A DNA stretch of 64,000 nt. Origin: Candidatus Versatilivoraceae bacterium. Lineage in GTDB: Bacteria; Acidobacteriota; Terriglobia; Versatilivoradales; Versatilivoraceae. The translations under genes were made by a program, and so were the position numbers. The stretch covers positions 228,211 to 292,210 of the forward strand of contig OZ240232.1 in the NCBI GenBank assembly GCA_965197895.1, in the 5' to 3' direction. Of the stretch, positions 4,656 through 48,300 are shown piece by piece. Under the pieces are notes generated by a model that saw only the letters and a program-made list of their open reading frames with translations, did not search any database and was not told where the DNA came from. Position 1 is the first letter of the stretch; every line of letters begins with the position of its first letter.

Positions 4656-5537
4656 TCAGACGCCTTTGGCAATTCTCTCCTGCAAGTCGGCCATTTGCTC
4701 CATCTGTTTCATGAAGGCGATGGTTCCGGTGAGGATGGTTCTCCAATCGGGTTTGGCCGGAACGCTGTCGAGAGAGATATAGCCCGAGAACCCCATGGCG
4801 TTGAGAGTCCGCACAACCTGCAGAAAGTCGATATGACCGGTTCCGGGCGCCTGCCGGTTGTTGTCGGCCAAATGGATATGCATCAGCCGGTCACCGGCGG
4901 CCCGGAGGGCGTCGTTCAGGGGACCATCTTCCATGTTTACGTGGAAGAAATCGGCTAGGACGCCCAGGTTGCTGGCTCCGATCTCTTCAACGATGTCTTT
5001 GGCTTCAACCAGGCTGTTCAGAAAACCGGCGTAGCCTTCGAAACGATTGATGGGCTCGATGGCGATCTCGACGTTGCGTTCGGCTGCATACTCTGTGATT
5101 TCTCGGGTGGATTTGATGAAATTGGCGCGCAGGACGTTTCGGGGCGTCTTGGCCACCGGGTACTCGGATTGCGCCGGAGAGGCGACAATTTCAAAGACGG
5201 GAGGCTCGTCGAAGGTCGTTGCCAGATCGACGCTTTTTTTGGCATAGTCTACGCCGTGGCGCCGCTCCGATTCGTCACTCGAGGCCAGGTCCCGGACTTC
5301 GCCCGCGTGCCACGGTGCCCAGGCTCCAATCAAAGCCGGCACTTGTAGGCCCAGGGAGGTGGCCAGGTCCTTCACCTCGTCAAATTGCCTGGCATCGATG
5401 CGGTCCGGCTCGGCGTCCAGGTCGACACCGTCATAGCCCGCTTGGGCCACAGCCTCCAGAACCTCGCGGGGTTTCTCCCAGACGTTGCCGCCGCTCGACG
5501 CCAGCGTGCAGAGAATCACTGAATACTTGTGCCCCAT
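4656..5537 (-). CDS. sugar phosphate isomerase/epimerase (xylose-isomerase-like TIM barrel)
   Basis: The pattern ...IEPINRFEG...HIHLADNNRQAPGTGHIDF is characteristic of AP_endonuc_2. ATG at 5537 has a GGAGG SD 9 nt upstream, whereas the track start at 5558 lacks one. Confidence 0.8.
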   Translation of the reverse strand: MGHKYSVILCTLASSGGNVWEKPREVLEAVAQAGYDGVDLDAEPDRIDARQFDEVKDLATSLGLQVPALIGAWAPWHAGEVRDLASSDESERRHGVDYAKKSVDLATTFDEPPVFEIVASPAQSEYPVAKTPRNVLRANFIKSTREITEYAAERNVEIAIEPINRFEGYAGFLNSLVEAKDIVEEIGASNLGVLADFFHVNMEDGPLNDALRAAGDRLMHIHLADNNRQAPGTGHIDFLQVVRTLNAMGFSGYISLDSVPAKPDWRTILTGTIAFMKQMEQMADLQERIAKGV

Positions 5538-7123: not shown

Positions 7124-7188
7124 TTCTTTGCAGAGGGGTCTCGCTCCGGGGATCGGGCGGGTGTACGACAAAAACGTTGGAATCGCAA

Positions 7189-7670
7189 ACCGGTTTAACG
7201 GGACATGGTCCTTGCTCCCGAAAGGCCATGAAGGCCGGTTGTTTCACCCTCGAATGATCCGCCCCGTCGTGGGGGGCGGGGGCCCCACTTGCCTGAAACA
7301 AACCTGGGCTCGGGTGACGGAAAATCGGTTCAACAGATTGAAAGAAAGGGGGTTGGAGAGGAATTGACAACTTCTGGGGGTTATCCAGGAAGGACACGGA
7401 GCCACACCCTACAATTCCCGGCGTTGGGTCTCGGCGTCGAGCATGAGTCGATCCCTGATTAACATCGATAGACAGGATAAACAGGATGGTTTGGAGAGAG
7501 GTTTCAGCGTCTTGAGTTCGACCATCGCCTTTTCTTCAACAAGGATTCCAAAAACCCGCTCCCAAGTTCATGGATCACTTCAAACGTGCACCCGATCATC
7601 GAGCGAGTCAGCTTCCTGTGCAGCAACACCCTTACAAATTCCAGTAACGTTTAATCTCATCCATTACAGT
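7189..7670 (+). repeat. single copy of the dispersed ~490-bp repeat unit (MITE-like core plus spacer), directly upstream of integrase 1
   Basis: Near-identical to the units in the 16805-17885 array and to 25915-26440 (inverted). Contains ATCGATAGACAGGATAAACAGGAT 9-mer iteron inverted repeats. Confidence 0.7.
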
Positions 7671-7738
7671 CCATAACTGTATTTTATATCAGTGGTTTAT
7701 ATGAGTCCCGCAATCGCGCGGCCGGCTCGAAACATCCC

Positions 7739-7773
7739 TTGCAATCCACTACCATCCCCCATATAATTAGGGG
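7739..7773 (+). promoter_or_regulatory. sigma70-type promoter TTGCAA-17nt-TATAAT with the -10 box inside the palindrome CCCC-ATATAATTA-GGGG, abutting the integrase ATG (leaderless mRNA predicted)
   Basis: TTGCAA at 7739-7744, 17-nt spacer, TATAAT at 7762-7767, ATG at 7774. The same architecture recurs at 39825-39859 in front of integrase 2. Confidence 0.55.
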
Positions 7774-9006
7774 ATGATTAATGTAACCAAAACCACCCGC
7801 CTGCTACTTAAGACGAAACCCAAGGGCCGCCATCCCCCAAAGGCCCTCTCGGCTGCCTTCATCCGCTCCGCTCCGCCTGGAAGACACGCCGACGGGAACG
7901 GATTGTACCTCTTCGTCCAACCCAGCGGAACCCGCAGCTGGATTCAGCGCCTTCTCGTCCGCGGTCGCCGCCGTGAGCTCGGACTCGGAAGTGTTGCCCT
8001 CGTTCCATTGGCCGAAGCCCGGGAGAAGGCCCTCGCCAACCGCAAGCTCGCCCGCCAGGGCGGAGACCCGCTCGCCGAGAAGCGCCGTGCCGAAGGCATC
8101 CCCACTTTCGCCGAAGCCGCCATGCGTGTGCTGGAGCAGAAGCAGGGCGGATGGCGCGGGCAGCGTCACCCTCGCGAGTGGCTGTCGAGCCTGAGGCGGT
8201 TCGCCTTCCCTCGCATCGGCAAGGTGCCGGTCTCAGAGGTTACGAGCGCCGACGTGCTTGAGATCCTCACGCCCATCTGGCACCGGAAGATAGAGACGGC
8301 CCGGCGAGTGCGCCAGCGCCTGCGGGCGGTCCTGGAATGGGCGGTAGCGATGGAGTACCGCCTTGACAACCCCTGCGACCGGATCGGACCGGTGCTGGGT
8401 GCCCAACAGGACGTTACCGAGCACAGGCAGGCCGTGCCCCATCGGGAGGCGGGTGCGGTGATCCGTAGGGTGCGGGCATCGGCAGCGCCGCCGGGCGTCA
8501 AGTTGGCTCTTGAGTTCCTGGTGCTGACGGCAGCCAGGTGGGGCGAGGTGCGGTGGGCCGAGTGGGAGGAGATCGATCGCAGCGGGAGGGTGTGGACCGT
8601 CCCGGCCAGGCGGATGAAGACGAACCGCCGGCACCGGGTGCCGCTGTGTGGCCGCGCCCTGGAGATTCTCGACACTGCGGAGATACAGGAGGGGGGAGTC
8701 GGTCCACTGGTGTTCACCCATAGGGGCGGGAAGCCTCTCAATGACAGCGTGCTGCGCCGGCTGCTGCGGGAGCTTGGGATTGCGGCGGTGCCGCACGGTT
8801 TCCGCTCGACCTTCCGGGATTGGGCGGGTGAGGAAACGGATCATCCCCGGGAAGTGATCGAGGCGGCCTTGGCGCATGTGGTCCGGAACCGGGTGGAGGC
8901 GGCCTATGCCCGCTCGGACCTGTTCGAACGCCGGCGCACGTTGATGGACGAATGGGCGCGTTACCTGGCCCAAGGGTCGGGAGAGGATCTGGAGCCCGTG
9001 GGATAA
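7774..9006 (+). CDS. int: P4-type tyrosine integrase (DUF4102 arm-binding N-domain + phage-integrase catalytic domain)
   Basis: N-terminal GRHADGNGLYLFVQPSGTRSWIQR (Arm-DNA-binding), C-terminal HGFRSTFRDWAGEE...AHVVRNRVEAAYARSDLFERRR with the R..H..R..Y catalytic residues. ~85% identical to the 39860..41092 copy. Confidence 0.9.
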   Translation: MINVTKTTRLLLKTKPKGRHPPKALSAAFIRSAPPGRHADGNGLYLFVQPSGTRSWIQRLLVRGRRRELGLGSVALVPLAEAREKALANRKLARQGGDPLAEKRRAEGIPTFAEAAMRVLEQKQGGWRGQRHPREWLSSLRRFAFPRIGKVPVSEVTSADVLEILTPIWHRKIETARRVRQRLRAVLEWAVAMEYRLDNPCDRIGPVLGAQQDVTEHRQAVPHREAGAVIRRVRASAAPPGVKLALEFLVLTAARWGEVRWAEWEEIDRSGRVWTVPARRMKTNRRHRVPLCGRALEILDTAEIQEGGVGPLVFTHRGGKPLNDSVLRRLLRELGIAAVPHGFRSTFRDWAGEETDHPREVIEAALAHVVRNRVEAAYARSDLFERRRTLMDEWARYLAQGSGEDLEPVG

Positions 9007-9162
9007 AGAGGCGGCCAGGGATCGGACCGACTCCACAGAAGGCGAGTCAGCGCCTCTGAGAGAGTGTGCCAGTCTCTAAGCACGGGACTACACCCGGACC
9101 ACCGCCCTCTTCGACACGCTGATAGTCTTCAGAAAGCTTGAATCTGCCAGCATGGTGACTGC

Positions 9163-10128
9163 ATGCCCAAGACCAGGGAAACCATGATTGCCCACCTGAA
9201 CGGACGGGAAAAACTGCTGAGGCCTCTTGGCTTCACCCCCCAACAGGCCGAATGGATCACCCTGGTCTGCCTGCACTCGGGCCTGTTCACCCGAGACCAG
9301 GTCGAGGCTTTCTTCGGATACGCCAAGTCTACCGCCAACCGCTTTATCCAGGCGTTGCTCCAGACACGCATTTCACACAAGCCAATAGCCTCGGAGACCA
9401 TCACCGACGGCCGCCGAGTTTGCCGGATCTTCGGCAAGCAGATCTACGGGGAGCTGGAGGTCCCCCACATCCGTCACCGCCGGGAGACCTCGCTTGAAGT
9501 CACCCGGCGGCGACTGCTATCGCTCGATTTCGTGCTGGATCATCCGGAGTTGGCTTGGCTGCCGACCGAGCAGGAGAAGGTCGCCTGCTTCCAACAGCTC
9601 GGGATCGAGCGAGGCTTTCTGCCTTTCAGGATCTACTCCGGCCATGCCAAGGGGCAGGTCCGGTATTTCCCCCTCAGGCTACCGGTTGCCATGGGGCCGG
9701 AGGCGGCCGTATTCGTCTACATCGACCCCGGCATGGGAACCCGTACGGAGCTGGACTCCTGGAGACATACCCACCGGCCGCTTTGGCAGGCGCTCCGCGA
9801 GTGCGGCTGGCGGATCGAGGTGGTTGCGGTCGCCTGGGAGCAGGAACTCCTGGACCGCGCCGAGCGGGTGATGCAATCCTGGGTCGGCAGAGACCTGACT
9901 GAGGCCGGCAGAGAACTTCTCATTCTCCGGTGGGCTGTCTCCAACGCCGACCGGGAAACAGTCGAACGCTATGGTGGCCTCAATGCCGCCCTCAAGAAAA
10001 TCAACCAATTGAAGCAGGCAACGCCGGAGCCCCAGGGCCTGGGAATGATCGACGATTTCCACCTCTGGGGGTCAAGGCGGTGCCGTCGTAGGCATGCGCC
10101 ACTGAAAAAGGGGGGGTGGCTCCTCTAG
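9163..10128 (+). CDS. integrase-element-associated hypothetical protein (wHTH-like N-terminus; possible replication/maintenance function)
   Basis: 321 aa, co-directional with int. A 5'-truncated paralogue lies at 46972..47506. No recognisable catalytic motif. Confidence 0.55.
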   Translation: MPKTRETMIAHLNGREKLLRPLGFTPQQAEWITLVCLHSGLFTRDQVEAFFGYAKSTANRFIQALLQTRISHKPIASETITDGRRVCRIFGKQIYGELEVPHIRHRRETSLEVTRRRLLSLDFVLDHPELAWLPTEQEKVACFQQLGIERGFLPFRIYSGHAKGQVRYFPLRLPVAMGPEAAVFVYIDPGMGTRTELDSWRHTHRPLWQALRECGWRIEVVAVAWEQELLDRAERVMQSWVGRDLTEAGRELLILRWAVSNADRETVERYGGLNAALKKINQLKQATPEPQGLGMIDDFHLWGSRRCRRRHAPLKKGGWLL

Positions 10129-10323
10129 TGGCGCACGCTCTTGACCACCGCAATGCTTCTCTCTCAGAGAGCGGAGCCCTCTCTGCTGTGGTCGGGGCCT
10201 TGCCTGGAAAGCCTTGTTGGAAGCGGTTTGGCACGGATTCCTGGCGTCGGCTGAGACAGCCGTGGTGGGGTGGCGGCTGGCGTGTTCCCGCCTCGCCCGG
10301 CGCACCGCACGAGACGGGTGATG

Positions 10324-10459
10324 GTGGAGGGAGCGACCCCCCGATTTTTGCCGCTGGTGCGGCACCGGGGAGGGGTAAAGGGTGACAGGCAAAACGACAC
10401 CTTTACCCTCCCCTTAAAGGGGGGTCGCTCCCTCCACAGTGATCCCTGCGGGAAGGCTG
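10324..10459 (+). repeat. palindromic module copy 1: 17-bp perfect inverted arms GGAGGGAGCGACCCCCC / GGGGGGTCGCTCCCTCC around a nested hairpin, with tail ACAGTGATCCCTGCGGGAAGGCTG
   Basis: Arms at 10326-10342 and 10419-10435. Other copies at 41208-41342 (inverted) and 47711-47846 (different centre). Confidence 0.75.
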
Positions 10460-10619
10460 ACGAGCCGATGAGGAGGTCAGGGCCGCCGCATCGACCACAG
10501 GCGGTGCGCTGCGCGGACCGACTGGAAGGAATTCAGTGGGGCAGTGTGGCGGGTGACCAGGGTGTCGAAGAAATGCCTGAGGGCAGCCAGGCTTGGTTGT
10601 TGGTTGCGTTTGGACATCG

Positions 10620-16505: not shown

Positions 16506-16804
16506 ATTGATATTCGGCTGACCTGTCCCTCAGTAACTGTTCGGTCAAGCCGTGATGGCTTGGACCCGGACGAGGTTGGAGGTGCCTGCAATCACAGGCG
16601 ATCCGTCGGTTCTGCTCGCTGCGCCTCCCCGGGACGGCGGATGGTCTCCACGGCTTGGCCGAACGGTTACGTCCGCCAACGTCCTGGAGGGTCCAATGGA
16701 TTCCTTTTCGAAAAGAGGGATATAATGAGGGAACTTCAGTCGGATAAACCATATTAAGTCTATTATAATTAGAGGTTTACAAACTATAGGTTGCAGGCTG
16801 TGCA
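16506..16804 (+). repeat. P1 repeat copy carrying a ~130-bp internal insertion
   Basis: Shares both ends with the other P1 copies; the extra segment lies at 16520-16690. Confidence 0.6.
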
Positions 16805-17885
16805 GCAGCTTCTCGTCCTGTTTATCCTGTCTATCCTGTCTATCGATGTTCCCTAATGCAACAAACCGGTTTAACGGGACATGTCCCTACTCCGGAAAGG
16901 TCATGAAGGTCCGTTGTTTCACTCTCGAATGATCCGCCCCGTCGTGGGGGCGGGGGCCGGCTTGCCTGAAACAACATCTGGGTTCGGCTGAAGGAAAACC
17001 GGTTGAGGGGTTATCCAGGAAGGACACGAAGTTACACCCTACAATTCCCGGCGTTTGGTATCGGCCTCGAGCATGAAAAGACTAATTGACATCGATGGAC
17101 AGGATAAACAGGATTATTTGGCGAGAGGTTTCAGCCTCTTGAGTTCGACCATCGCCTTTTCTTCAACAAGGATTCCAAAAACCCGCTCCCAAGCTCATGG
17201 ACCCCTTCAAACGTGCACCCGATTATCGAACCAGTCAGCTTCCCGTGCAGCAGCTTCTCGTCCTGTCTATCCTGTCTATCCTGTCTATCGATGTTCCCTA
17301 ATGCAACAAACCGGTTTAACGGGACATGTCCCTACTCCGGAAAGGTCATGAAGGCCGGTTGTTTCACTCTCGAATGATCCGCCCCGTCCTGGGGGGCGGG
17401 GGCTATACTTGCCTGAAACAAACCTGGGTTCGGGTGAAGGAAAACCGGTTCAACAGATTGAAAGAAAGGGGGTTGGAGAGGAATTGACAACTTCTGGGAG
17501 TTATCCAGGAAGGACACGAAGTTACACCCTACAATTTCCGGCGTTTGGTATCGGCGTCGAGCATGAAAAGACTAATTGACATCGATGGACAGGATAAACA
17601 GGATTATTTGGCGAGAGGTTTCAGCCTCTTGAGTTCGACCATCGCCTTTTCTTCAACAAGGATTCCAAAAACCCGCTCCCAAGCTCATGGACCCCTTCAA
17701 ACGTGCACCCGATTATCGAGCCAGTCAGCTTCCTGTGCAGCAGCTTCTCGTCCTGTCTATCCTGTCTATCGATGTTCCCTAATGCAGCAAACCGGTTTAA
17801 CGGGACATGGTCCCTGCTCCCGAAAGGCCATAAGGGTCCGTTGTTTCACCCTCGAATGATCCACCCCGTCGTGGGGGCGGGGGCC
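16805..17885 (+). repeat. tandem array (~2.3 units) of the ~490-bp repeat
   Basis: The units beginning at about 16805 and 17230 are >90% identical, and a third partial unit begins at about 17725 and ends at 17885. Each unit holds a ~340-bp segment bounded by 23-bp inverted repeats ATCCTGTCTATCCTGTCTATCGAT / ATCGATGGACAGGATAAACAGGAT. Confidence 0.8.
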
Positions 17886-25641: not shown

Positions 25642-25914
25642 TCCAGGGAGGGGTCCCCGGCAATACTCAAAGTAGGGGTTTTAGGGCGAAGCAGGCCTTG
25701 GGCCGGGGGGAGCGGGCGCTGCCGCTGCTGCCCGAAGCCCGAGGAGTAGGGCCCCGAATGAATGCGACCAGGATGTTGCTTGAGGATTCGGGGACGGACG
25801 GCCCAAAGAGTCCCAAGGAGGCAATGGGAAGGCCGCTTACCAGACCTTCCCTGGCAGTGGGACTGTCAGGTGATTACCGTCACTGTACAGACACGGGCGG
25901 ACCAGAGGTAAGTG

Positions 25915-26440
25915 GGGCCCCCGCCCCCCAGGACGGGGCGGATCATTCGAGGGTGAAACAACGGATCCTTATGGCCTGTCGCGAGTAGGGACCATGTCCC
26001 GTTAATCGGGTTTGCTGCATTAGGGAACATCGATAGACAGGATAGACAGGATAAACAGGACGAGAAGCTGTTGCACAGGAAGCCGACTCGCTCGATGATC
26101 GGGTGCGCGTTTGAAGTGATCCAGTAGCTTGAGAGCGGGTTTTCGGAATCCTTGTTGAAGAAAAGGTGATGGTCGAACTCAAGGGGGTGAAAACTCTCGT
26201 CCCGGAGCATGCAGCCCAGACCATCAACAAACCATCCTGTTTATCCTGTCCATCGATGTTAATCAGGGATCGACTCATGCTCGACGCCGAGACCCAACGC
26301 CGGGAATTGTAGGGTGTGGCTCCGTGTCCTTCCCGGATAACCCCCACAAGTTGTCAATTCCTCTCCAACCCCCTTTCTTTCAATCTGTTGAACCGGTTTT
26401 CCGTCACCCGAACCCAGGTTTGTTTCAGATAAGTATAGCC
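25915..26440 (-). repeat. inverted copy of the ~490-bp repeat unit
   Basis: Reverse complement of the 16805-17885 array consensus. Confidence 0.75.
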
Positions 26441-26450
26441 CGAGCCGGAT

Positions 26451-31218: not shown

Positions 31219-31749
31219 TCGACACCTCCCCGGATACCTGCAGCACCCTTGCCACCACCCGCATGTCGCTGCTAGCGTGGCTACGGAGCTTGGTTTCTGT
31301 ATCTCACATCGATAGACAGGATGGACAGGATGAACCAGATGGTTTTCTGTCTCTATTATCCTGTCCATCCTGTTCATCCATGTTCCATTTCATCGATCCA
31401 TAATCTTCCACAGGTCATGCAGCAAGCGCAGGGTCTTTCCGAAGACATCAATCAGCAGTTTGCTAAAGGTTAGCCTTGCCCCCGCCCCATACGACGGGGC
31501 GGATCATTCGAGGAAAAACGGCTGATCGTTAATGAAGACGAACCACGAATGGACACGAATAGACCAGAAGACAGATGGGCCTCCTTCAACGACAAGCGGC
31601 ACCAAAATGCATCTGCAATTTTGTGACCTTGGTGCAGCCCTTGGTGTCCTTCGTGTCCATTCGTGTCCCTTCGTGGTTCTTCGTGCCCCTTCGTGGATTT
31701 CTTTTTTTTGGCCTTGGTGGATAACCCCTCAATTGGTTTCAGGTAAGCC
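31219..31749 (+). mobile_element. 531-bp non-coding insertion flanked by 23-bp direct repeats (GGTCTGARGCMGAGCCTCGCTAG) that duplicate the BNR-gene stop codon
   Basis: DRs at 31196-31218 and 31750-31772. The interior holds a TIR-TIR hairpin of the 9-mer-iteron MITE (31296-31400) and a CACGAAGG-type iteron block (31600-31700). Confidence 0.6.
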
Positions 31750-31768
31750 GGTCTGAGGCAGAGCCTCG

Positions 31769-39215: not shown

Positions 39216-39339
39216 GGCCGAGGAATCAAAGGTCGGGCACAGGGCGGGAGGATGCTAACACAGATCCAGCCCATCTCAACGGGAAGAGGCTTGCCTGAAA
39301 CCAATTGAGGGGTTTATCCACAAAGGCCAAAAAAAGAAA

Positions 39340-39635
39340 TCCATGAAGGTGATCCACAAAGAGCACGAAGGGGAAAAGAGATATCCACGAAGGGGCACGA
39401 AGGACCACGAAGGGCCACTAAGGGGTTGGAGAAGGCTCAAGAGGGATCCGCCAAAGGTCGGGAAGGGGGAATAGATTTCCAGGAAGGGGCTGAAGTATCT
39501 GTCAAGGGGGTAAAAGATTAATCCGCGAAGGGACTCTAAGGGGTTGGAAAAGACTCGAAAGGGGTCTGTGAAGGACCACGAAGAAAGACACTAAGGAAAA
39601 AAGAAATCCACGAAGGACACGAAGTTGCACCAACG
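39340..39635. repeat. array of >=12 degenerate 8-9-mer direct repeats (CACGAAGG / CACTAAGG) at ~10-25-bp spacing
   Basis: Seen directly: cacgaagggg, cacgaagggg, cacgaagga, cacgaaggg, cactaagggg, ctctaagggg, cacgaagaa, cactaagga, cacgaagga, cacgaagtt. A shorter inverted block lies at 31600-31700. Confidence 0.7.
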
Positions 39636-39859: not shown

Positions 39860-41092
39860 ATGATTGCTGGAACCCATACCGCCTGTCTGCTACCCAGAAC
39901 CAAACCCAAGGGCCGCCATCCCCCAAAGGCCCTCTCGGCTGCATTCCTGCGCTCCGCTCCGCCCGGAAGACACGCCGATGGAAACGGATTGTACCTCTTC
40001 GTCCAGCCCAGCGGAACCCGCAGCTGGATTCAACGCCTCCTGGTCCGCGGCCGCCGCCGTGAGCTCGGACTCGGCAGCGTTGCCCTGGTCCCGCTGGCCG
40101 AGGCCCGGGAGAAGGCGCTCGCCAACCGCAAGCTCGCCCGCCAGGGCGGGGACCCGCTCGCCGAGAAGCGACGTAGCCAGGCCGTCCCCACCTTCGCCGA
40201 AGCCGCCATGCGTGTGCTGGAACAGAAGCGGGACGGATGGCGCAACCCGAGACACCCGCGCGAGTGGATCTCGAGCCTGAGGCGGTTCGCCTTCCCGCGC
40301 ATCGGCAAGGTGCCGGTCTGTGAGGTCACGAGCGCCGATGTCCTTGAGATCCTCACGCCCATCTGGCACCAGCAGGCCCCCACGGCCCGGCGGGTGCGCC
40401 AGCGCCTGCGGGCGGTCCTGGAATGGGCCGTAGCCATGGAGTACAGGATCGACAACCCCTGCGACCGGATCGGCCCGGTCCTGGGTCTCCAACAGGACGT
40501 TATCGAGCACATGCAGGCCTTGCCCCATCGGGAGGTGGCTGCGGTGATCCGGACGGTGCGGGTATCCCCAGCTCTGCCGGCCGCCCGGCTGGCCCTTGAG
40601 TTCCTGGTGCTGACGGCAGCCAGGTGGGGCGAGGTGCGGTGGGCTGAGTGGGAGGAGATCGATCGTAGCGGGAGGGTGTGGACCGTCCCGGCCAAGCGGG
40701 CAAAGACGAACCGCCGGCACCGGGTGCCGCTGTGTGGCCGTGCCCTGGAGATTCTCGAGGCGGCGCAGGCACTGGAGCAGGGAGCCGGTCCGCTGGTGTT
40801 CACCCATGGGGGCGGGAGGCCTCTCCATGACAGCCAGCTGCGCCGCCTGCTGCGCGAGCTTGGGGTTGCGGCGGTGCCACACGGGTTCCGCTCGACCTTC
40901 CGGGACTGGGCGGGTGAGGAAACGGACCATCCCCGGGGGGTGATCGAGGCGGCCCTGGCGCATGTGGTCCGGAACCGGGTCGAGGCAGCCTATGCCCGCT
41001 CGGACCTGTTCGAGCGCCGGCGTATCCTGATGGACGACTGGGCGCGTTACCTGGCCCAAGGGATGGAGGAGGAGTCGGAGCCCTTGGAGTAA
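39860..41092 (+). CDS. int: P4-type tyrosine integrase, copy 2
   Basis: 410 aa, collinear with 7774..9006. Confidence 0.9.
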   Translation: MIAGTHTACLLPRTKPKGRHPPKALSAAFLRSAPPGRHADGNGLYLFVQPSGTRSWIQRLLVRGRRRELGLGSVALVPLAEAREKALANRKLARQGGDPLAEKRRSQAVPTFAEAAMRVLEQKRDGWRNPRHPREWISSLRRFAFPRIGKVPVCEVTSADVLEILTPIWHQQAPTARRVRQRLRAVLEWAVAMEYRIDNPCDRIGPVLGLQQDVIEHMQALPHREVAAVIRTVRVSPALPAARLALEFLVLTAARWGEVRWAEWEEIDRSGRVWTVPAKRAKTNRRHRVPLCGRALEILEAAQALEQGAGPLVFTHGGGRPLHDSQLRRLLRELGVAAVPHGFRSTFRDWAGEETDHPRGVIEAALAHVVRNRVEAAYARSDLFERRRILMDDWARYLAQGMEEESEPLE

Positions 41093-41207
41093 AGAGGCCC
41101 AAGGGATCGGTTGCCCGGGGCAAACCAGGGTGAGAGCCAGGCTCGAAGTCCGGCGGCAGTCAAAGCCAGGTTGAGCAGGACAACCCGGGTCCAGGTCTTC
41201 AGCATTT

Positions 41208-41342
41208 CAGCCTTCCCGCAGGGATCACTGTGGAGGGAGCGACCCCCCTTTAAGGGGAGGGTAAAGGTGTCGTTTTGCGTGTCACCCTTTACCCCTACCC
41301 GGTGCCGCACCAGCGGTCAAAAAGGGGGGGTCGCTCCCTCCA
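41208..41342 (-). repeat. palindromic module copy 2 (inverted relative to integrase; centre identical to copy 1)
   Basis: Reverse complement of 10324-10459. The adjoining 41350-41520 is the inverted 3' flank of the 9163 gene family. Confidence 0.75.
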
Positions 41343-41660
41343 CCAGCACCCCTCTCGTGCGGCGCGCCGCCGCGCCGGTCGGGAGGGGGACACGCGAGGC
41401 GCAGCCTCGCTTCGCTGTTTCGCATTGGACGCGGAAAATGCTTGTCCTTCCGCGTCTGATGCGGCGTTTCGGGAAAACCCTTAACCACAACGGAGAGGCC
41501 TCCGCCCTCTGAGAGAAAAGCGTTGTCGTGCTCAAAAACATGTCACCCCTCGATGTCACCCCCCCCCTTCGGAAAGGGTGACACCCATACGGCGGCATCT
41601 GCTTGACCCCCAGAGGCGGAAATCGTCGACCATTCCGCGGTCATTGGGTGAGCCTGTTTC

Positions 41661-41897
41661 TTGCTCCGATTCATCCCCGCGTCTGTGGGGAACAGGACCG
41701 TGACCAGTATTCCCGAATGGCTGAAGACGGATCATCCCCGGGAGGTGATCGAGGCAGCCCTGGCGCATGTGGTCCGGAACCGGGTCGAGGCAGCCTATGC
41801 CCGCTCGGACCTGTTCGAACACCGGCAGGTCCTGATGGATGACTGGGCGCGTTACCTGGCCCGAGGGACGGGGGAGAATCTGGAGCCCTTCGGGTAA
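41661..41897 (+). pseudogene. integrase C-terminal fragment (third copy, ~65 aa)
   Basis: DHPREVIEAALAHVVRNRVEAAYARSDLFEHRQVLMDDWARYLARG. Homology begins abruptly at 41735. Confidence 0.8.
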
Positions 41898-42054
41898 ACA
41901 GGCCCGTGGACCCTGCCGGAGGTGTGGAAAACCCCGCGGCGCCGGACCGGTACGCTGCAAGCTCACTAGAGAGTTTCCCATACCTCCTTGGACGGGCACT
42001 CCCCGCCCACAGGCTCCACCGTCCCGGCGGCGGTCTTTTTGAATAATCCATTAA

Positions 42055-43164
42055 CCCGCATTTCTTGCCGGGGGGGCGTGAAAATGGCGCAGGAATTTTC
42101 CCCTCAGCGCGTGCTCGTGAGCGAAAAGCGTAGCGGTTTCTACGGTCGAGCGAGCATGTGCGCGCTGAGGGAAAAAGGACGAGCCAGAGTGCGCCCAGCA
42201 CCGTGTGTCATTGGAAACCGTCAAAATAGACCTACAAGCTGTTGAAAACACACCGTCGTTGCACGGTGTATCCAGCGACCCGGGTAGAGTCGAGGACTGG
42301 CGCGTTGACTATAGGGTCCGGTGGCTATTCCGTCGCTTTCGCTTCGGGCCTCAGTCCGGCTCCCTTATCACGTTTCCAGTCCCCGCTCTCCGAACCGGAC
42401 GTGCGGTTTTCCCGCATCTCGGCTCTCCAGTGGGATCATGCCTCTCGCACACAGGTCTCCGCTCGCATCCGTGGACGACTCCTATGGGACTGGCACTCGT
42501 CCCCCACTCCATCCACGTCCGCTCGCGGGTTGCCGCCAGGCCTGTTGACGCCCCGACGACGCCGTCCTCATCAGACGACCCCTTCGCTTTGGCATGTGAT
42601 GCTTCCGGAGTCTCCGGTCCTTTTGCCGGGGTTTCAGGCTTTCGCCACTCCCGGGACCCTTCCCCCTTCGGTCACCGCTCCTCACCTGAGGCCCCTTCCC
42701 TCCACCGGCATTACCCGGCTTCTCCAGTACTACGAGCCTCTCCGCCACCCTGCCGGCCCAGCCTCCCCCTCACGGGGTCCCGGTTCGATGCGTGCCTCAC
42801 CACCCACAGGGCTTCCCATGTTGCCACCTTCTTCCCCTTCCATGCGTGCCAGCGCCACTACCCCGGCGGATCCCGAGGGGTGCCCGCGTCGCTCGCTTCC
42901 CCCTCCGTCTTCGGCCTTCCCCATTTCTCAGGTGGGTCGCCCCCCGCATTGCCCGTTTCGAGGCCTGCTCGACGTTCACTCGCGTTCCGGCCCGCATGTT
43001 CGCTGAACCGCCCAAAGCAGCCCTTTGAACCAGGGTGCTTCAGACCCTATCGTTACCTCCATGATCCGCCCTGGCTGCTACCAACCGGAGCGACAGTTGT
43101 TGGACGGGTTTCGCACCCGTTAGAAGAAGGCGCCTTTCCATGGCGCACTGAGAAATGCGGGTTA
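42055..43164 (-). mobile_element. second copy of the 18-bp-TIR MITE, interrupted by a group II intron
   Basis: Left TIR 42055-42071; right TIR TGAGAAATGCGGGTTA at 43149-43164. Collinear with 35083-35325 except for the insert at 42285-43148. Confidence 0.75.
42285..43148 (-). ncRNA. ORF-less group II intron (864 nt)
   Basis: Minus-strand 5' end GUGCGC, 3' end ...CUCGACUCUAC. Domain V GAGCCGAGAUGCGGGAAAACCGCACGUCCGGUUC at 42392-42427. The insertion is precise relative to the empty MITE copy. No RT ORF. Confidence 0.7.
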
Positions 43165-43363
43165 GGCTGTCTCAGGACCGCGCTCTTCTTCAGCAATGGC
43201 GCGCCGTCCGTCAATGACCAGAGACCGGTTCCCTAATCTCATCAGTCCTTTAGTAAGGTGTGGCTCGAACGTGCTGTGTTTAAAATCACCCAAATACGTT
43301 ATAGTGTGCCTTTCATCATCTAACCCCTTCAGACATTACCCGAGAAACCGGAGAGAACTCGTC

Positions 43364-46300
43364 ATGGGAAACCCCGCTTTGACTGCCGCTTGCCTGCACC
43401 GATTTAGATTTCAAACCGCCCTGGCGTGCCTGCTGGCCTGTGTCTGGACCGTAGCTCTGAGTGTCGAAGGCAGCGCTCAGGACCACGCCGGGGACAAACA
43501 GGCGCTAGTCGCGCTCTACAACGCCACCGACGGCCCCAATTGGGCCAACAACGAAAACTGGTTGAGCGAGGAGCCGCTCGAGAACTGGTACGGCGTCAGC
43601 GTCAGCGATGGACGTGTTACGAGGCTTTTTCTCGCCGGCAACCAACTGACGGGCGCCATTCCTGCCGAGTTGGGCAACCTCTCCAACCTCACGGGGCTGA
43701 TTCTCTCCAGCAACCAACAATACTTGCCTGAAACGAGAACCTTTGAAGGGGGACTGACGGGCGCCATTCCTGCCGAGTTGGGTGACCTCTCCAGCCTGGA
43801 GGTCCTGGATCTCGCCGGCAACCAACTGACGGGGACCATCCCCGCCGAGTTGGGTAACCTCTCCAGCCTCACGGGGCTGTTTCTCCGGAACAACCAACTG
43901 ACCGGGACCATTCCGCCCGAGTTGGGCAACCTCACCAATCTCAGGTGGTTGGATCTTGCAAACAACCAGCAATACTCGCCTGAAACGAGAACCTTTGAAG
44001 GGGGACTGACGGGAGCCATTCCTGCCGAGTTGGGTGACCTCGCCAGCCTGGAGGTCCTGAATCTCGGCGGCAACCAACTGACGGGGACCATTCCGACGGA
44101 ACTCGGTGACCTCGCCAACCTCACGCGTCTGTATCTCGCCGGCAACCAACTGACGGGGACCATCCCCGCCGAGTTGGGTGACCTTTCCAGCCTCGTGGGC
44201 CTGGATCTCTCTGGCAATCAACTGACGGGGACCATTCCGCCGGAGCTGGGTGACCTCTCCAACCTCACGGAGCTGATTCTCTCCATCAACCAACTGACGG
44301 GAGCCATTCCGACGGAACTCGGTGACCTCTCCAGCCTCACGAGGCTGTATCTCCACAACAACCAACTGACGGAACCCATCCCTCCGGAGTTGGGCAACCT
44401 CTCCAACCTCACGGAGCTGATTCTCTCCAGCAACCAACAATACTCGCCGGAAACGGGAACCTTTGAAGGGGGACTGACGGGGTCCATCCCGCCCGAGTTG
44501 GGTGACCTCGCCAACCTCACGCGTCTGTATCTCGCCGGCAACCAACTGACGGGGACCATCCCCGCCGAGTTGGGTAACCTCTCCAACCTCACGGAGCTGA
44601 TTCTCAACAACAACCAACTGACGGGTCCCATCCCGACGGAACTCGGTGACCTCGTCAGCCTCACGAGGCTGTGGCTCTCCACCAACGAACTGACAGGCCC
44701 CATCCCCGCCGAGTTGGGTAACCTCTCCAACCTCACGGAGCTGATTCTCAACATCAACCAACTGACGGGTCCCATCCCGACGGAACTCGGTGACCTCGTC
44801 AGCCTCACGAGGCTGTGGCTCTCCACCAACGAACTGACAGGCCCCATACCCGCCGAGTTGGGTGACCTCTCCAGGCTCTTGGCGTTGTATCTCAACGGCA
44901 ACCAACTGACGGGGTCCATTCCTCCTGAACTCGGGGACCTCGCCAGCCTCACGAGGCTGTATCTCCACAACAACCAACTGACGGAACCCATTCCGCCTGA
45001 GTTGGGCAACCTCGCCAGCCTCAGGTGGCTGGTTCTCTCCGGCAACCAACTGACGGGGTCCATCCCGCCAGAACTCGGTGACCTCTCCAGCCTCGTGGGG
45101 TTGTATCTCAACGGCAACCAACTGACGGGGTCCATCCCTCCTGAACTCGGGGACCTCGCCAGCCTCACGAGGCTGTATCTCCACAACAACAAACTGACGG
45201 AACCCATTCCGCCTGAGTTGGGCAACCTCGCCAGCCTCAGGTGGCTGGATCTCTCCGGAAATCAACTGACAGGGACCATTCCTCCAGAGTTGGGTAACCT
45301 TTCCAGCCTCGTGGCACTGAATCTCGCCGGCAACCAACTGACGGCATCCATCCCTCAGAGTTTCACCAGCCTGATGCTGGAGCATTTCTACTTCCATGGA
45401 AATCCCGGTCTGAGCGTGCCGGATGACGTTGCCCTGCGGGAGTGGCTGGATGGCATCAAGGAACTCCGGGACCAGGATTACTCCCCCGCTACACCCTTTG
45501 TTCCGGTGATCCTGAGCTCCGCCGGGCAAAACAATTCTTTCTTCACCTCGGAGCTGACCCTGACCAATCGAGGAACCGTGGCGGCACCTCTGACCTACAC
45601 CTACACGGCTCATAGGGGAGGGGGAAGCGGCGTTGCCAATGACAGTCTGCGTCCCGGGGAGCAAAGGATCATTTCCAATGCCATCGAGTACCTCAGAACC
45701 CGGCTCATTCCCATCCCCATCCCCGGCACCGGCAATCGGATTGGGACGTTACGGGTAACGCTCGGACAGTTTTCATCGTCCCAGGTGGGGGTCACGGTGC
45801 GGACCACCACCACGGTGCCCGAGGGTCGCGCCGGTCTGGCCTACCCCGGGGTTTCCGCAGAGGCCGGTTTCGATGAAGCCGTGTATTTGTGCGGCCTGCG
45901 CCAGAACCAACAAGATCGCTCCAACGTTGCCTTCCAGAACCTGGGGACAGATGCCGACGGTCCCATTACCTTGAGGACCACGGTGTTTTCGGGAGACCCG
46001 GAGGATAGCCGTCCCCACGTTCTCGAGGATAGAACCCTGCAGCCGGGCGGGTTCTATCAGTATTCGGGGTTGTTGGGGGTGTTGGCCAGTGTGGGCGGCA
46101 ACCGACAGGGCTACGTCAAGGTGGAACGGGTTGAGGGGACGGCTCCGTTCTATGCCTACGGCGTCATCAACGACCAGGCCAACTCAGATGGGTCGTTCGT
46201 CTTTCCGGCCACGGCCAGTTTGCTCGAGGGGACAACGGGACAGACCCTGCCGGTGATTGTCGAGACCGGAGTCTTCACCAGCGAGCTGATGGTGACCAAC

Positions 46301-46966
46301 TTCTCAGACGTTGCCAAGACGGTGACCTTCCGCTTCAGGGCCGATGCGGTCCAGACTCCCGACAAGACGGCCACAGTGGAATGGACCTTCCATCCCGGCC
46401 AGCAAATGATCGTCCCCAACATCGTCGACATGGTGCGCAAGTTGGGAGCAGCAGGGGTCGGGCGGGCCGGACAGACCTTTGCCGGGGCACTGTTCGCCAC
46501 CGTGGCCGAGGGGGACATGAGCGGGATAGCGATCGGAGCCCGCACCAGCTCCTCCGACGGCCGCGGCGGGCAGTACGGGGTTTACTACAACGCGGTGCCC
46601 TACGGGGGGGCGTTCCTGGAAGGCGCCTGGGTGGAGGCTCTCCAGCAGAACGAGGAGAACCGCAGCAACCTGGCGCTGGTCAACACCGGTGAAGTCGATG
46701 ACAGTCCCAGTGTCTTTCAACTCGACATCTACGATGGAGCGACCGGGATGTTGGCCAACACGGTCACCGGCCTGACGGTTCCGGCCGGAGGGTGGCGTCA
46801 GATCAACACCCTCCTGGGGGACTATGCTCCCGGCACCATGCAAGGCTATGTGCGGATCAGCAAGATTTCAGGCAACAATCCCTTCCTGGCTTACGGAATC
46901 ATCAACGACGGCGGGGCGCCGGGACAGCGCAGCGGCGACGGGGCCTACCTGCCGGCTCGGGAGTAG
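43364..46966 (+). CDS. secreted plant-type leucine-rich-repeat protein (~30 x 24-aa LRRs) with duplicated uncharacterised C-terminal domain
   Basis: ATG 43364 with a GGAGAG SD. Signal peptide, then the LRRNT-like cap ALVALYNATDGPNWANNENWLSEEPLENWYGVSV, then repeats LxxLxLxxNQLTGxIPxELGNLSN. The last ~520 aa form two homologous ~250-aa halves. Confidence 0.85.
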   Translation: MGNPALTAACLHRFRFQTALACLLACVWTVALSVEGSAQDHAGDKQALVALYNATDGPNWANNENWLSEEPLENWYGVSVSDGRVTRLFLAGNQLTGAIPAELGNLSNLTGLILSSNQQYLPETRTFEGGLTGAIPAELGDLSSLEVLDLAGNQLTGTIPAELGNLSSLTGLFLRNNQLTGTIPPELGNLTNLRWLDLANNQQYSPETRTFEGGLTGAIPAELGDLASLEVLNLGGNQLTGTIPTELGDLANLTRLYLAGNQLTGTIPAELGDLSSLVGLDLSGNQLTGTIPPELGDLSNLTELILSINQLTGAIPTELGDLSSLTRLYLHNNQLTEPIPPELGNLSNLTELILSSNQQYSPETGTFEGGLTGSIPPELGDLANLTRLYLAGNQLTGTIPAELGNLSNLTELILNNNQLTGPIPTELGDLVSLTRLWLSTNELTGPIPAELGNLSNLTELILNINQLTGPIPTELGDLVSLTRLWLSTNELTGPIPAELGDLSRLLALYLNGNQLTGSIPPELGDLASLTRLYLHNNQLTEPIPPELGNLASLRWLVLSGNQLTGSIPPELGDLSSLVGLYLNGNQLTGSIPPELGDLASLTRLYLHNNKLTEPIPPELGNLASLRWLDLSGNQLTGTIPPELGNLSSLVALNLAGNQLTASIPQSFTSLMLEHFYFHGNPGLSVPDDVALREWLDGIKELRDQDYSPATPFVPVILSSAGQNNSFFTSELTLTNRGTVAAPLTYTYTAHRGGGSGVANDSLRPGEQRIISNAIEYLRTRLIPIPIPGTGNRIGTLRVTLGQFSSSQVGVTVRTTTTVPEGRAGLAYPGVSAEAGFDEAVYLCGLRQNQQDRSNVAFQNLGTDADGPITLRTTVFSGDPEDSRPHVLEDRTLQPGGFYQYSGLLGVLASVGGNRQGYVKVERVEGTAPFYAYGVINDQANSDGSFVFPATASLLEGTTGQTLPVIVETGVFTSELMVTNFSDVAKTVTFRFRADAVQTPDKTATVEWTFHPGQQMIVPNIVDMVRKLGAAGVGRAGQTFAGALFATVAEGDMSGIAIGARTSSSDGRGGQYGVYYNAVPYGGAFLEGAWVEALQQNEENRSNLALVNTGEVDDSPSVFQLDIYDGATGMLANTVTGLTVPAGGWRQINTLLGDYAPGTMQGYVRISKISGNNPFLAYGIINDGGAPGQRSGDGAYLPARE

Positions 46967-46971
46967 ACACC

Positions 46972-47506
46972 GCAGGAGAAAGTTGCCTGCTTCAAGTAGC
47001 TCGGCGTCGACCCCAAGCTACTCCCGAAACGCATCTACGCCGGCCGCGCCAACGGACGCATCCGGTATTTCCACATCAAGATGCCAGTCGCCGTCGACGG
47101 TGACCGGGCCATCTTCGCCTACATGGATCCTGGCATGTCCACCCGAAGCCCGCTCCATTGCTGGGGCCAAGCCCACCGGCAGCTTTGGGACAAGCTCCGG
47201 CAGGCAAGCCGGACTGTCGAAGTATTTGCGGTCGCTTGGTACCAGCACCATCTCAACCGCACCCAGCGGGTTCTCCAGGCCTGGACAACCCGAGACCCGG
47301 CAGCGGCCAAGACAGAAGCGGCGGGGCTGCGGCAAGCCATCGCTGATGCCGATTGGGACACCGTCGAACGCCATGGCGGCCTCGACGCCGTCGTGGATAA
47401 GATCGACCAAGCTGAGGAGGAAACGGCGGCCTGGGCCGGAGCAGGATGGATCGACCATTTCCGCCTCCGGGGATCAAGCTCGTGGCGTCAAATGACCGCA
47501 ATTTGA
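46972..47506 (+). pseudogene. 5'-truncated paralogue of the 9163..10128 integrase-element gene
   Basis: Homology starts 6 bp after the LRR stop and covers the C-terminal ~175 aa (..KVACFQQLG.., YMDPGMSTRS..). It is followed by the same 3' flank and palindromic module. Confidence 0.7.
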
Positions 47507-47710
47507 AAGTCATTGTCAAATTGCGCAGACAAGCCCTGTATTTCCGCCTCTCTCAGAGGGCGGGGCCCTCGCCGTTGTGGTGTGCTCGTTTCAGGAAAAC
47601 CGTTACGGGACGCGGGTTTTCCCGCGTCCTCACCCCCTAAGGGGGCGGGGCTGTGCCCCGCGCGTCCCCCTTCCGGCCAGCGGAGATGGTGGCGCACAAT
47701 AAGGGAGAAA

Positions 47711-47846
47711 GTGGAGGGAGCGACCCCCCTTTTTGCCTTCAAAGTGCGCCACCGAGCAGGGATGACAATTGCGCACCAAATTGCGCACTTTTCCTCCCCT
47801 TTTCGTGGGGGGGCGCTCCCTCCACAGTGATCTCTGCGGGAAGGCT
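47711..47846 (+). repeat. palindromic module copy 3 (same arms, different centre GTGCGCCACCGAGCAGGGATGACAATTGCGCACCAAATTGCGCAC)
   Basis: Arms at 47713-47728 and 47806-47822 (one mismatch). The tail ACAGTGATCTCTGCGGGAAGGCTG is conserved. Confidence 0.75.
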
Positions 47847-48000: not shown

Positions 48001-48300
48001 TTGATACTCGGCTAACCTGTCCGCCAACATCCTGGAGCGTCCAGTGGGTTCCTTTTCAAAAAGAGGGATATAATGAGGGAACTGCAGCAGGCTGATTTGT
48101 AGTAAGTTTATTATAATTAATGGTTTATATTTGAGAGATTGCAGGCTGTGCAGCAGCTTCTCGTCCTGTTTATCCTGTCTATCGATGTTCCCTAATACAG
48201 CAAACCGGTTTAACGGGACATGGTCCCTACACCCGAAAGGCCATAAGGGTTCGTTGTTTCACTCTCGTATGATCCGCACGGCGGGGCGGGGGCGGGGGCG
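48001..48300 (+). repeat. P1 repeat plus the first ~140 bp of the 490-bp unit
   Basis: Collinear with 16506-16950 minus the internal insertion. Confidence 0.7.

Follow-up and report, generated by a model that had tools for sequence, protein, structure and literature searches.

A candidate origin of transfer associated with an unannotated protein family in Acidobacteriota and Gemmatimonadota

The palindromic module and its surroundings

A stretch of 64,000 nucleotides from Candidatus Versatilivoraceae bacterium (Acidobacteriota; GenBank assembly GCA_965197895.1, contig OZ240232.1, positions 228,211 to 292,210 of the forward strand), which was analysed as a whole and is referred to here as the window, contains three copies of a palindromic module, each located downstream of an intact or truncated gene for a protein of 321 amino acids that we call p321. 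We propose, with a probability of about 0.65, that the module is the large inverted repeat of a MOBC-like origin of transfer (oriT) used by conjugative elements of Acidobacteriota and Gemmatimonadota. All coordinates given below are positions in the window.

The three palindromes were found close to where the original prediction, made from the sequence of the window, had placed them, and it had also correctly described a nested hairpin common to copies 1 and 2 and a different hairpin in copy 3. The module spans ~114 bp between the ends of its arms and ~133 bp with the tail included, and its outer stem comprises 17-19 bp with the arm sequence GGAGGGAGCGACC; copies 1 and 2 have perfect arms, and the right arm of copy 3 carries a single change (GGGGGGGCGCTCCCTCC). 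Copy 1 occupies positions 10324-10456 of the plus strand. Its outer stem (10324-10342/10419-10437), composed of 17 bp (10324-10340/10421-10437) and two additional C-G pairs, encloses a small hairpin (10350-10363) and a long variable one (10367-10413) with the tip GGGTGACA at 10380-10387, and is followed by ACAGTGA and the tail hairpin TCCCTGCGGGA (10443-10453), a 4-bp TCCC-TGC-GGGA structure that overlaps the sequence GGAAGG at 10451-10456. Copy 2 lies on the minus strand at 41211-41343 (outer stem 41343-41327/41246-41230, tail hairpin 41224-41214), and copy 3 on the plus strand at 47711-47844 (outer stem 47711-47727/47809-47825, with one mismatch), where it has a different centre and a tail, TCTCTGCGGGA at 47831-47841, that contains TCTC. 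The 15-nt tail occurs three times in the window against 0.33 expected, and the exact 10-nt core is found there only in three paired arrangements, which are the three copies, so that a chance origin is excluded.

The repeated unit is larger than was first noted and extends from the 3' end of the p321 gene through a spacer of ~200 nt and the palindrome to the small tail hairpin. Copies 1 and 2 had been thought to share a 170-bp upstream flank, but their homology really covers ~420 nt (10051-10460 versus 41627-41207, 77%) and takes in the 3' end of the 321-codon open reading frame (ORF) and the conserved block TCTCTCAGAGRGCGG...TGTGGT. A conserved upstream block, TCTCTCAGAGAGCGGAGCCCTCTCTGCTGTGGT, located in copy 1 at 10160-10192 of the plus strand, is common to all three copies, and its TCAGAG(R)G motif is kept in the related loci of Acidobacteriota described below.

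The homology block of copy 1 (~7500-10465) contains two plus-strand genes. The first one (7774-9006) encodes an intact P4-type tyrosine integrase of 410 amino acids with the Pfam domains Arm-DNA-bind_3, Phage_int_M and Phage_integrase, and the second one (9163-10128) encodes p321, a candidate relaxase, modelled with an N-terminal winged helix and a C-terminal restriction-endonuclease-like domain. A second intact integrase gene, whose product is 86% identical to the first, is located next to copy 2 (39860-41092, plus strand), and its 3' end overlaps an opposite-strand stub of a coupling-protein gene. This stub of 52 codons (MLKTWTRVVLLNL...; 41047-41205, minus strand) starts 5 nt past the tail of copy 2, and in a tblastn comparison its translation is 62% identical to residues 1-34 of the 680-amino-acid coupling protein of one of the related loci, L016. 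On the other side of copy 2, tblastn reveals a C-terminal fragment of p321 of ~41 codons (41562-41684, minus strand; residues 278-318, 46% identity), followed by an additional fragment of the 3' end of an integrase gene (residues 354-410; 41724-41894, plus strand; repeat family D5), which is in direct orientation to 40922-41100. Copy 3 is preceded by an N-terminally truncated p321 homologue (46943-47500, plus strand; residues 131-312, 47% identity) that adjoins the 3' end of a gene for a leucine-rich-repeat protein of 1256 amino acids (43196-46966, plus strand), built of at least 18 copies of a 72-nt tandem unit. No type IV secretion genes are present among the ORFs of the window, and those not mentioned here look like ordinary chromosomal or cargo genes.

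For copy 2 a site-specific inversion had been suggested. We find that the two stretches of integrase 3' end on either side of it (40922-41100 and 41727-41905) are direct repeats and not inverted ones, and that the piece holds just the last ~41 codons of p321 and the 52-codon stub; in locus L023 a module, a coupling-protein stub and an opposed integrase are arranged in the same way. Taken together, these features indicate a junction of truncated elements instead of an inversion. The last ~180 nt of the integrase gene are present three times in the window, always in direct orientation (8836-9014, 40922-41100 and 41727-41905), and the bracketing of the copy 2 remnant by two of them suggests that insertions have occurred repeatedly at the 3' end of this gene or close to it. 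A group II intron (42284-43122, minus strand; Rfam RF02003, 79 bits, and RF00029, 41 bits) is located just past this remnant.

Related loci and gene context

Relatives of p321 were collected by a profile-guided scan of one genome per species, which yielded 301 confirmed loci, of which 80 were kept. Their hosts are Candidatus Versatilivorator, other Acidobacteriota, and Longimicrobiales/Palauibacter of the Gemmatimonadota, and some genomes carry more than one locus. In nearly all of the 80 loci the arm motif is found ~170-230 nt after the p321 stop codon, even where the identity between the p321 proteins has fallen to 43-48%. In most loci the ATG of a membrane protein of ~680 amino acids follows 5-11 nt past the tail; matches to TrwB_AAD_bind and TraG-D_C identify this protein as a type IV coupling protein.

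A census of gene order covered the 65 full-length loci of the related set. The order VirB8, p321, module, coupling protein, with no adjacent integrase, was found in 45 of them, and integrase, p321, module, with no coupling protein, in 10, all of which are close relatives of the window; no full-length locus has an integrase and a coupling protein together (0/65). The module had originally been described as lying downstream of the integrase-element genes, but what it follows is p321 and not the integrase, which is not even adjacent to copy 3; the association with an integrase is a special case of this rule. In the intact loci L081 and L082 the complete order is TrbC, VirB3, VirB4, CagX, TrbI, TrbL, VirB8, p321, module, coupling protein and VirB11, followed by RepB_primase and ArdC. 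Both kinds of locus may share one genome: CBDAOQ010000003.1 carries the integrase-type loci L001, L002 and L020 together with the secretion-operon loci L016 and L021, which have the same core.

Metagenomes were scanned with the core pattern, which retrieved at least 120 contigs with a mixture of modules, unrelated palindromes and chance hits. Among the matches listed, genuine modules are found in sponge and soil samples; those that have the tail and no detectable p321 in the upstream sequence present are L089, L093, L098, L101, L116, L146 and L149. An abundant soil palindrome with the same 10-nt core, GTGAGCGACCCCCT..., with inner hairpins such as TCTCCCCCTCACGAGGGGGAGA and the ending ...AGGGGGTCGCTCAC, has 30-nt outer inverted flanks, no tail and no adjacent p321, and is apparently unrelated to the module; examples among the matches listed are L094, L096, L097, L099, L100, L103, L111-L113, L117, L118, L125, L130 and others.

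Conservation and covariation of the module

Conservation was analysed in 75 non-identical oriented modules. When arms and centres were aligned, the pattern of conserved arms and a variable centre, first noticed in three copies, was upheld by 75-79 non-identical copies from two phyla. The core of the stem, GAGCGACCCC/GGGGTCGCTC, is essentially invariant, while seven outer stem positions covary, with three pair types and 93-100% Watson-Crick pairing: at position -1 GC is found 56 times, AT 18 times and TA once, at position -3 CG 37, TA 18 and AT 15 times, and at position -4 GC 30, AT 26 and CG 6 times. The closing pair of the tail hairpin is CG in 64 copies, TA in 9 and GC in 2. In a MAFFT alignment that was not fitted to the structure, the two alignable helices are 94.6% paired compared to 85.4% in shuffled alignments, with a covariation score of 0.251 compared to 0.085 (0/500 shuffles reach 0.251), and control helices obtained by sliding are 44-56% paired. 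These two-helix counts and anchor-based pair counts were used because RNAalifold, run on the MAFFT alignment, mispaired the variable hairpin owing to register shifts.

Despite very divergent sequences, the centre folds into two hairpins in 67 of the 75 copies, and the inner hairpin covaries as well, its pairing being kept by compensatory changes. Random decay of one ancestral centre, which the original prediction had named as the finding that would overturn it, is not what is seen, given this compensation and a motif of the centre that recurs upstream of the module (see below). The retention of pairing across divergent copies points to selection on pairing, and hence to the importance of a single-stranded or extruded form.

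An element-specific motif shared by the centre and the upstream region

Near the tip of the long hairpin, on its 5' strand, the modules carry a motif of 8-12 nt with the general form GGTGnnnCA. In most loci it recurs two to four times around the stop codon of p321, usually as an inverted copy, a G-rich spacer such as TCAGAGGGGGG, and one or two direct copies. The motif varies from element to element (GGGTGACA, GGTGGCGCA, GGTGTTGCA, GGTGGAACAT, ATGTGCAC, GTTTGCGCAC, GTTTTCACA), and a word of at least 9 nt is shared between the tip and the upstream region of the same locus in 52% of loci, compared to 14% when upstream regions of other loci are taken. The type of motif tracks the sequence of the predicted recognition helix in the winged helix of p321, a relationship that is confounded by phylogeny. 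The repeats overlap the codons of the low-confidence C-terminal tail of p321 and, lying 100-230 bp upstream, form a candidate binding site of the relaxase.

In the window, copy 2 displays the full pattern: its repeats (41541-41584, minus strand; GTGTCACCCTTT inverted, a G-rich spacer, and GGGTGACA twice) match the tip of its hairpin, AAAGGGTGACAC. The iteron-like cluster of copy 1 (10094-10137, plus strand), which spans the p321 stop codon, has the same layout with ATGCGCCACT inverted, a G-rich spacer, and GGTGGCTCC and AGTGGCGCAC in direct orientation; both these repeats and the p321 helix belong to the GTGGCGCA type, which is also that of L002 and L004. The centre of copy 3 contains two direct copies of AATTGCGCAC (47767-47776 and 47779-47788, plus strand), and the corresponding upstream motif, ATTGCGCA, is read directly at 47520-47527 of the plus strand; the same type of centre is found in L018.

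DNA or RNA

The stems could also act in a transcript, where a structured 5' leader or an intercistronic RNA would govern how the coupling-protein mRNA is processed, stabilized or translated, with the tail hairpin sequestering GGAAGG. The covariation of the stems would be expected of such an RNA, its folding z-scores range from -5 to -6, the coupling-protein ATG lies 5-11 nt past GGAAGG in many loci, where this sequence probably doubles as the ribosome-binding site, and a 5' extension, GGGGTG..., is able to pair with ...GATCCC in competition with the tail hairpin. A functional RNA of such size and diversity, however, normally has G-U pairs on one strand only. In the module they are neither in excess on the sense strand (73/1673 on the plus strand versus 83/1720 on the minus, antisense strand) nor accompanied by greater stability, the total folding energy slightly favouring the antisense strand, so that the strand-specific conservation that the original prediction had proposed to look for is absent, which argues for DNA over RNA. 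Moreover, conservation is strongest in the duplex sequence on both arms and not in the loops, and the motif of the centre is shared with upstream repeats that are double-stranded. The tail remains unchanged in loci of the Bryobacterales type, where the coupling-protein ATG is 47-50 nt further on and has its own Shine-Dalgarno sequence, GGAGA, and it is kept in the integrase-type loci that have no coupling protein at all. No Rfam family matches the module at gathering or E-value thresholds. On balance, an RNA leader appears unlikely as the primary function. Neither is the module a simple terminator, as the original prediction had already held: the stem is followed by ACAGTGATCCC, with no T-run, and a terminator scan was negative at the module. 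No sigma-70-like promoter was found at the module either.

Mobile elements in the tail and the role of the integrase

The original prediction had compared the module to recombination sites of the attC type or to a cassette-exchange module, and one part of this idea has been borne out in a different sense, since the tail serves as a target for other mobile elements. In L005 (5263-8167 of that locus) a 2.9-kb element with an intact integrase of 406 amino acids and a presumed oriT remnant is inserted in the tail of the module and flanked on both sides by the 9-bp sequence TCCCTGCGG, while L004 and L006 of the same genome represent the empty site. A group II intron (RF02005, 171 bits) starts within the tail hairpin of L059, immediately past TCCCTGCG (5241-5501 of that locus), and lies between the module and the coupling-protein gene; L060 has an intron at this point as well. 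Integrative mobilizable elements have been found to be capable of integrating in the oriT of a conjugative element (PMC5704250). Recombination of one oriT with another was considered for the L005 insertion and rejected, as no module precedes its right junction.

The other part of the idea, that the module is a folded attP-like or attC-like site, or a cassette-exchange module, recombined by the adjacent tyrosine integrase, fares worse. It would account for the position of two window copies near integrase genes, for the sharp end of homology among integrase-type copies just past the tail, and for the L005 insertion, with its 9-bp duplication, and the L059 intron at the same point. In 45 of the 65 loci, however, the module is located within a secretion operon on a multi-megabase chromosome with no integrase nearby and does not mark the end of an element; a sequence internal to conjugation operons on large chromosomes is not the attachment (att) site of its own element. 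Each p321 gene is accompanied by a single module, only three are present in 64 kb, no cassette array is formed, and the integrase is of the P4 type with an arm-binding domain and is not IntI. The direct repeat of the tail is absent at the left edge of copy 1, and the L005 insertion marks the tail as a target, a role already described for oriTs (PMC5704250). We regard a recombination site of the neighbouring integrase as decidedly improbable.

Two further candidates for att sites were rejected. The direct repeat GATCCCTG occurs at 7450 and 10441, and its copy at 7450 belongs to an unrelated repeat family and has both flanks kept in L009. An attP between the module and the coupling-protein gene was discarded, the two being contiguous on large chromosomes in most loci. 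The repeat family in question is separate from the module and occurs in many copies in the window (7131-7653, 16671-17883, 25906-26446 and 48019-48296), as units of 150-270 nt with 85-98% identity, in both orientations, that contain the hairpin CCGCCCCGTCGTGGGGGGCGGGG; it is found directly to the left of the copy 1 unit and ~170 nt to the right of copy 3. Clusters of short CACGAAGG-like repeats are present at 39288-39620, 5' of the second integrase, and at 31657-31750, with the inverted partner 7.6 kb away (pairs I16 and I19).

The p321 protein

None of the 2392 homologues of p321 has a Pfam domain, p321 itself has no match in Pfam, NCBIfam or PHROG, and a sequence search of the PDB returned nothing useful; a tblastn search of 72,556 plasmids gave no match. 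An AlphaFold2 model based on an alignment of 56 sequences is confident (predicted local distance difference test score, pLDDT, 89; predicted template modelling score, pTM, 0.82), the larger alignment having remedied a pLDDT of 52 obtained with 18 sequences. It consists of an N-terminal winged helix and a C-terminal restriction-endonuclease-like domain of the PD-(D/E)xK kind. A Foldseek comparison with the PDB gave only weak hits, and the best structural match is the nickase N.BspD6I. If the model is right, p321 would be a candidate relaxase with the architecture of MOBC relaxases such as TraX of pAD1. The homologues P0140, P0143 and P0176 are fused behind an ArdC module (ArdcN and MPTase-PolyVal), which links the p321 family to proteins that act on transferred DNA.

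With its winged helix, p321 might alternatively be an initiator that binds iterons, and the module a replication origin or single-strand initiation site whose hairpin would be used for priming or loading in the excised element. Iterons beside a conserved hairpin are typical of such origins, the winged helix is compatible with iteron binding, and primase-like genes are present in the intact elements; p321 and the module are nevertheless located within a transfer operon, beside the coupling protein, and the C-terminal domain of p321 resembles a nuclease instead of another winged helix. Integrative conjugative elements are known to replicate from oriT in a relaxase-driven rolling-circle mode, so that this explanation, to which we give little credence, overlaps that of an oriT.

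A candidate origin of transfer

The interpretation of the module as the large inverted repeat of a MOBC-like oriT is built on the anatomy of the module, on how it is conserved and covaries, on the absence of a strand bias, on the surrounding genes, on the fold of p321 and on the matching of the motifs. The probability of about 0.65 given at the outset applies jointly to this reading and to three statements that accompany it. The full oriT would begin ~40 nt ahead of the p321 stop codon and end with the tail hairpin (~10090-10456 in copy 1). Copy 1 (7774-10456) would be a minimal integrative mobilizable unit comprising an integrase, p321 and the oriT; lacking secretion genes of its own, it would depend on a related element as helper. 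Copies 2 and 3 would be truncated remnants.

In the mechanism that we envisage, the winged helix of p321 would bind the element-specific short repeats around its own stop codon and also the copy of the motif at the tip of the inner hairpin. The stem with the invariant core GAGCGACCCC/GGGGTCGCTC and the tail hairpin would form by strand extrusion or on single-stranded DNA, the restriction-endonuclease-like domain would nick one strand in or beside the inverted repeat, and the nicked strand would be passed to the coupling protein, the product of the gene directly downstream in intact elements.

A number of points weigh against this proposal. Binding of the DNA by p321, nicking, the position of the nick and mobilization are steps that we infer. 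Neither p321 nor 27 of its homologues match PF13814 (Replic_Relax), lenient E-values included, and hhalign comparison of the p321 family with the TraX-family profile gives a probability of 3% and an E-value of 0.014, the two families nevertheless aligning collinearly over 163 columns, with the common motifs LH..(T/S)R.Q and HP.L...(T/S)E; homology of p321 to the MOBC relaxases is conjectural. About 21 kb of the intact elements were inspected, and a canonical relaxase may be encoded elsewhere. The module is probably co-transcribed with p321 and the coupling protein, and may have an additional role at the RNA level. Among the matches listed from a DNA-only metagenome sample, 7 of the 11 modules with at least 700 nt of upstream room have no detectable p321 and 4 have one; the former may be remnants like copies 2 and 3, or hitchhikers that consist of an oriT only. 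Finally, the tip of copy 1 has the sequence GGGTGACA, like those of copy 2 and L009, and differs from the upstream repeats of its own element, which are of the GTGGCGCA type; this mismatch suggests that the centre has been exchanged between elements.

The last alternative, a non-functional palindromic repeat of the repetitive extragenic palindrome (REP) or miniature inverted-repeat transposable element (MITE) kind that happens to lie near p321, would be in keeping with the abundant soil palindrome and with the several metagenome copies that have no detectable p321, but it is hardly credible given that the module keeps its place and direction with respect to p321 and the coupling protein across two phyla, at 43-48% p321 identity, and given the covariation and the matching of the motifs.

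If the module is an oriT, the combination of the invariant GAGCGACCCC...GGGGTCGCTC stem, the TCCN...N'GGAAGG tail and an adjacent p321 gene would be a signature, in sequence and structure, by which transfer origins could be recognised in two phyla that are abundant but genetically intractable, that include sponge symbionts and soil bacteria, and whose relaxases and oriTs are at present largely unannotated. Many small integrase-bearing islands could then be read as mobilizable hitchhikers, and the system would represent a second, distant case of MOBC-type logic, i.e. a distant repeated binding site combined with a large inverted repeat. The match between the tip and the upstream repeats offers a testable hypothesis of how specificity is encoded. 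One may speculate further that p321 and the module define a family of relaxases and oriTs beyond the current MOB models, with a restriction-endonuclease fold and no demonstrable sequence kinship to MOBC, that drives conjugation and mobilization in both phyla; its specificity would reside in a swappable label composed of the stop-codon repeats and the tip copy, and the invariant stem and tail would be both the catalytic site and a landing pad for integrase elements and introns. This broader view is tentative, and we consider it doubtful.

Comparison with known systems

MOBC relaxases, exemplified by TraX of pAD1 and MobC of CloDF13, belong to the PD-(D/E)XK restriction-endonuclease superfamily, and TraX carries a winged helix at its N-terminus and binds to a set of five direct repeats located 70-120 bp from nic (2025 review, PMC12857230). 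MOBC oriTs are located between the mating-pair-formation operon and the relaxase gene (2026 preprint, bioRxiv 10.64898/2026.01.13.699239). In pAM373 we find the order coupling-protein gene, 142-bp nested inverted repeat (18-bp outer and 25-bp inner arms), 5-6 tandem 12-bp repeats, and replication-relaxation (TraX) gene. Francia and Clewell reportedly found in 2002 that the large inverted repeat is conserved between pAD1 and pAM373 and that TraX nicks inside it, and the direct repeats are said to be plasmid-specific and to set specificity.

The module resembles oriT2 of the Enterococcus pheromone plasmids pAD1 and pAM373 in several respects. Both are nested inverted repeats of ~140 bp with outer arms of 17-18 bp and an inner hairpin, both have element-specific repeats nearby, with the binding site, a putative one in the case of p321, at a distance from the inverted repeat, and both are located between a coupling-protein gene and a gene for a protein of ~260-320 amino acids with a winged helix and a restriction-endonuclease fold. 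On the other hand, sequence similarity between the pAD1/pAM373 system and p321 or the module was not found, the genes run in the opposite order here (candidate relaxase, oriT, coupling protein), the repeats number two to four, including an inverted copy around a G-rich spacer instead of the 5-6 tandem 12-mers of pAM373, and a copy of the repeat is present at the tip of the inner hairpin, where none was seen in pAM373. The module also has an extra small hairpin and a conserved tail hairpin, and is associated with VirB-type secretion genes and other hosts.

The copy 1 unit is similar to iMOB elements, which consist of an integrase, a relaxase and an oriT: it combines an integrase, a candidate relaxase and a candidate oriT in ~2.9 kb and has no secretion genes; no flanking direct repeats or att sites were found around it. 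The pairing of both types of loci in CBDAOQ010000003.1 corresponds to the hitchhiker-helper pattern described for such elements (PMC5704250; bioRxiv 10.64898/2026.01.13.699239).

Two other kinds of sites share parts of this design. Like the module, integron attC sites are imperfect palindromes in which the ends are conserved and the centre varies, and the two probably act as folded single strands, but the module has no IntI, no cassette array and no RYYYAAC/GTTRRRY ends, and is present as one copy per p321 gene inside conjugation operons. Origins of rolling-circle plasmids and circular Rep viruses, as proposed here for the module, combine element-specific iterons, to which the initiator binds, beside a conserved hairpin with a site-specific nuclease, which is, however, of the HUH fold, while the one predicted here is PD-(D/E)xK-like and is encoded in the context of a type IV secretion operon. 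The kind of element that we propose is already known; the present case stands apart by its unannotated protein family, its unusual hosts and the tip of its hairpin, which displays a copy of the repeat that was not found in the reference system.

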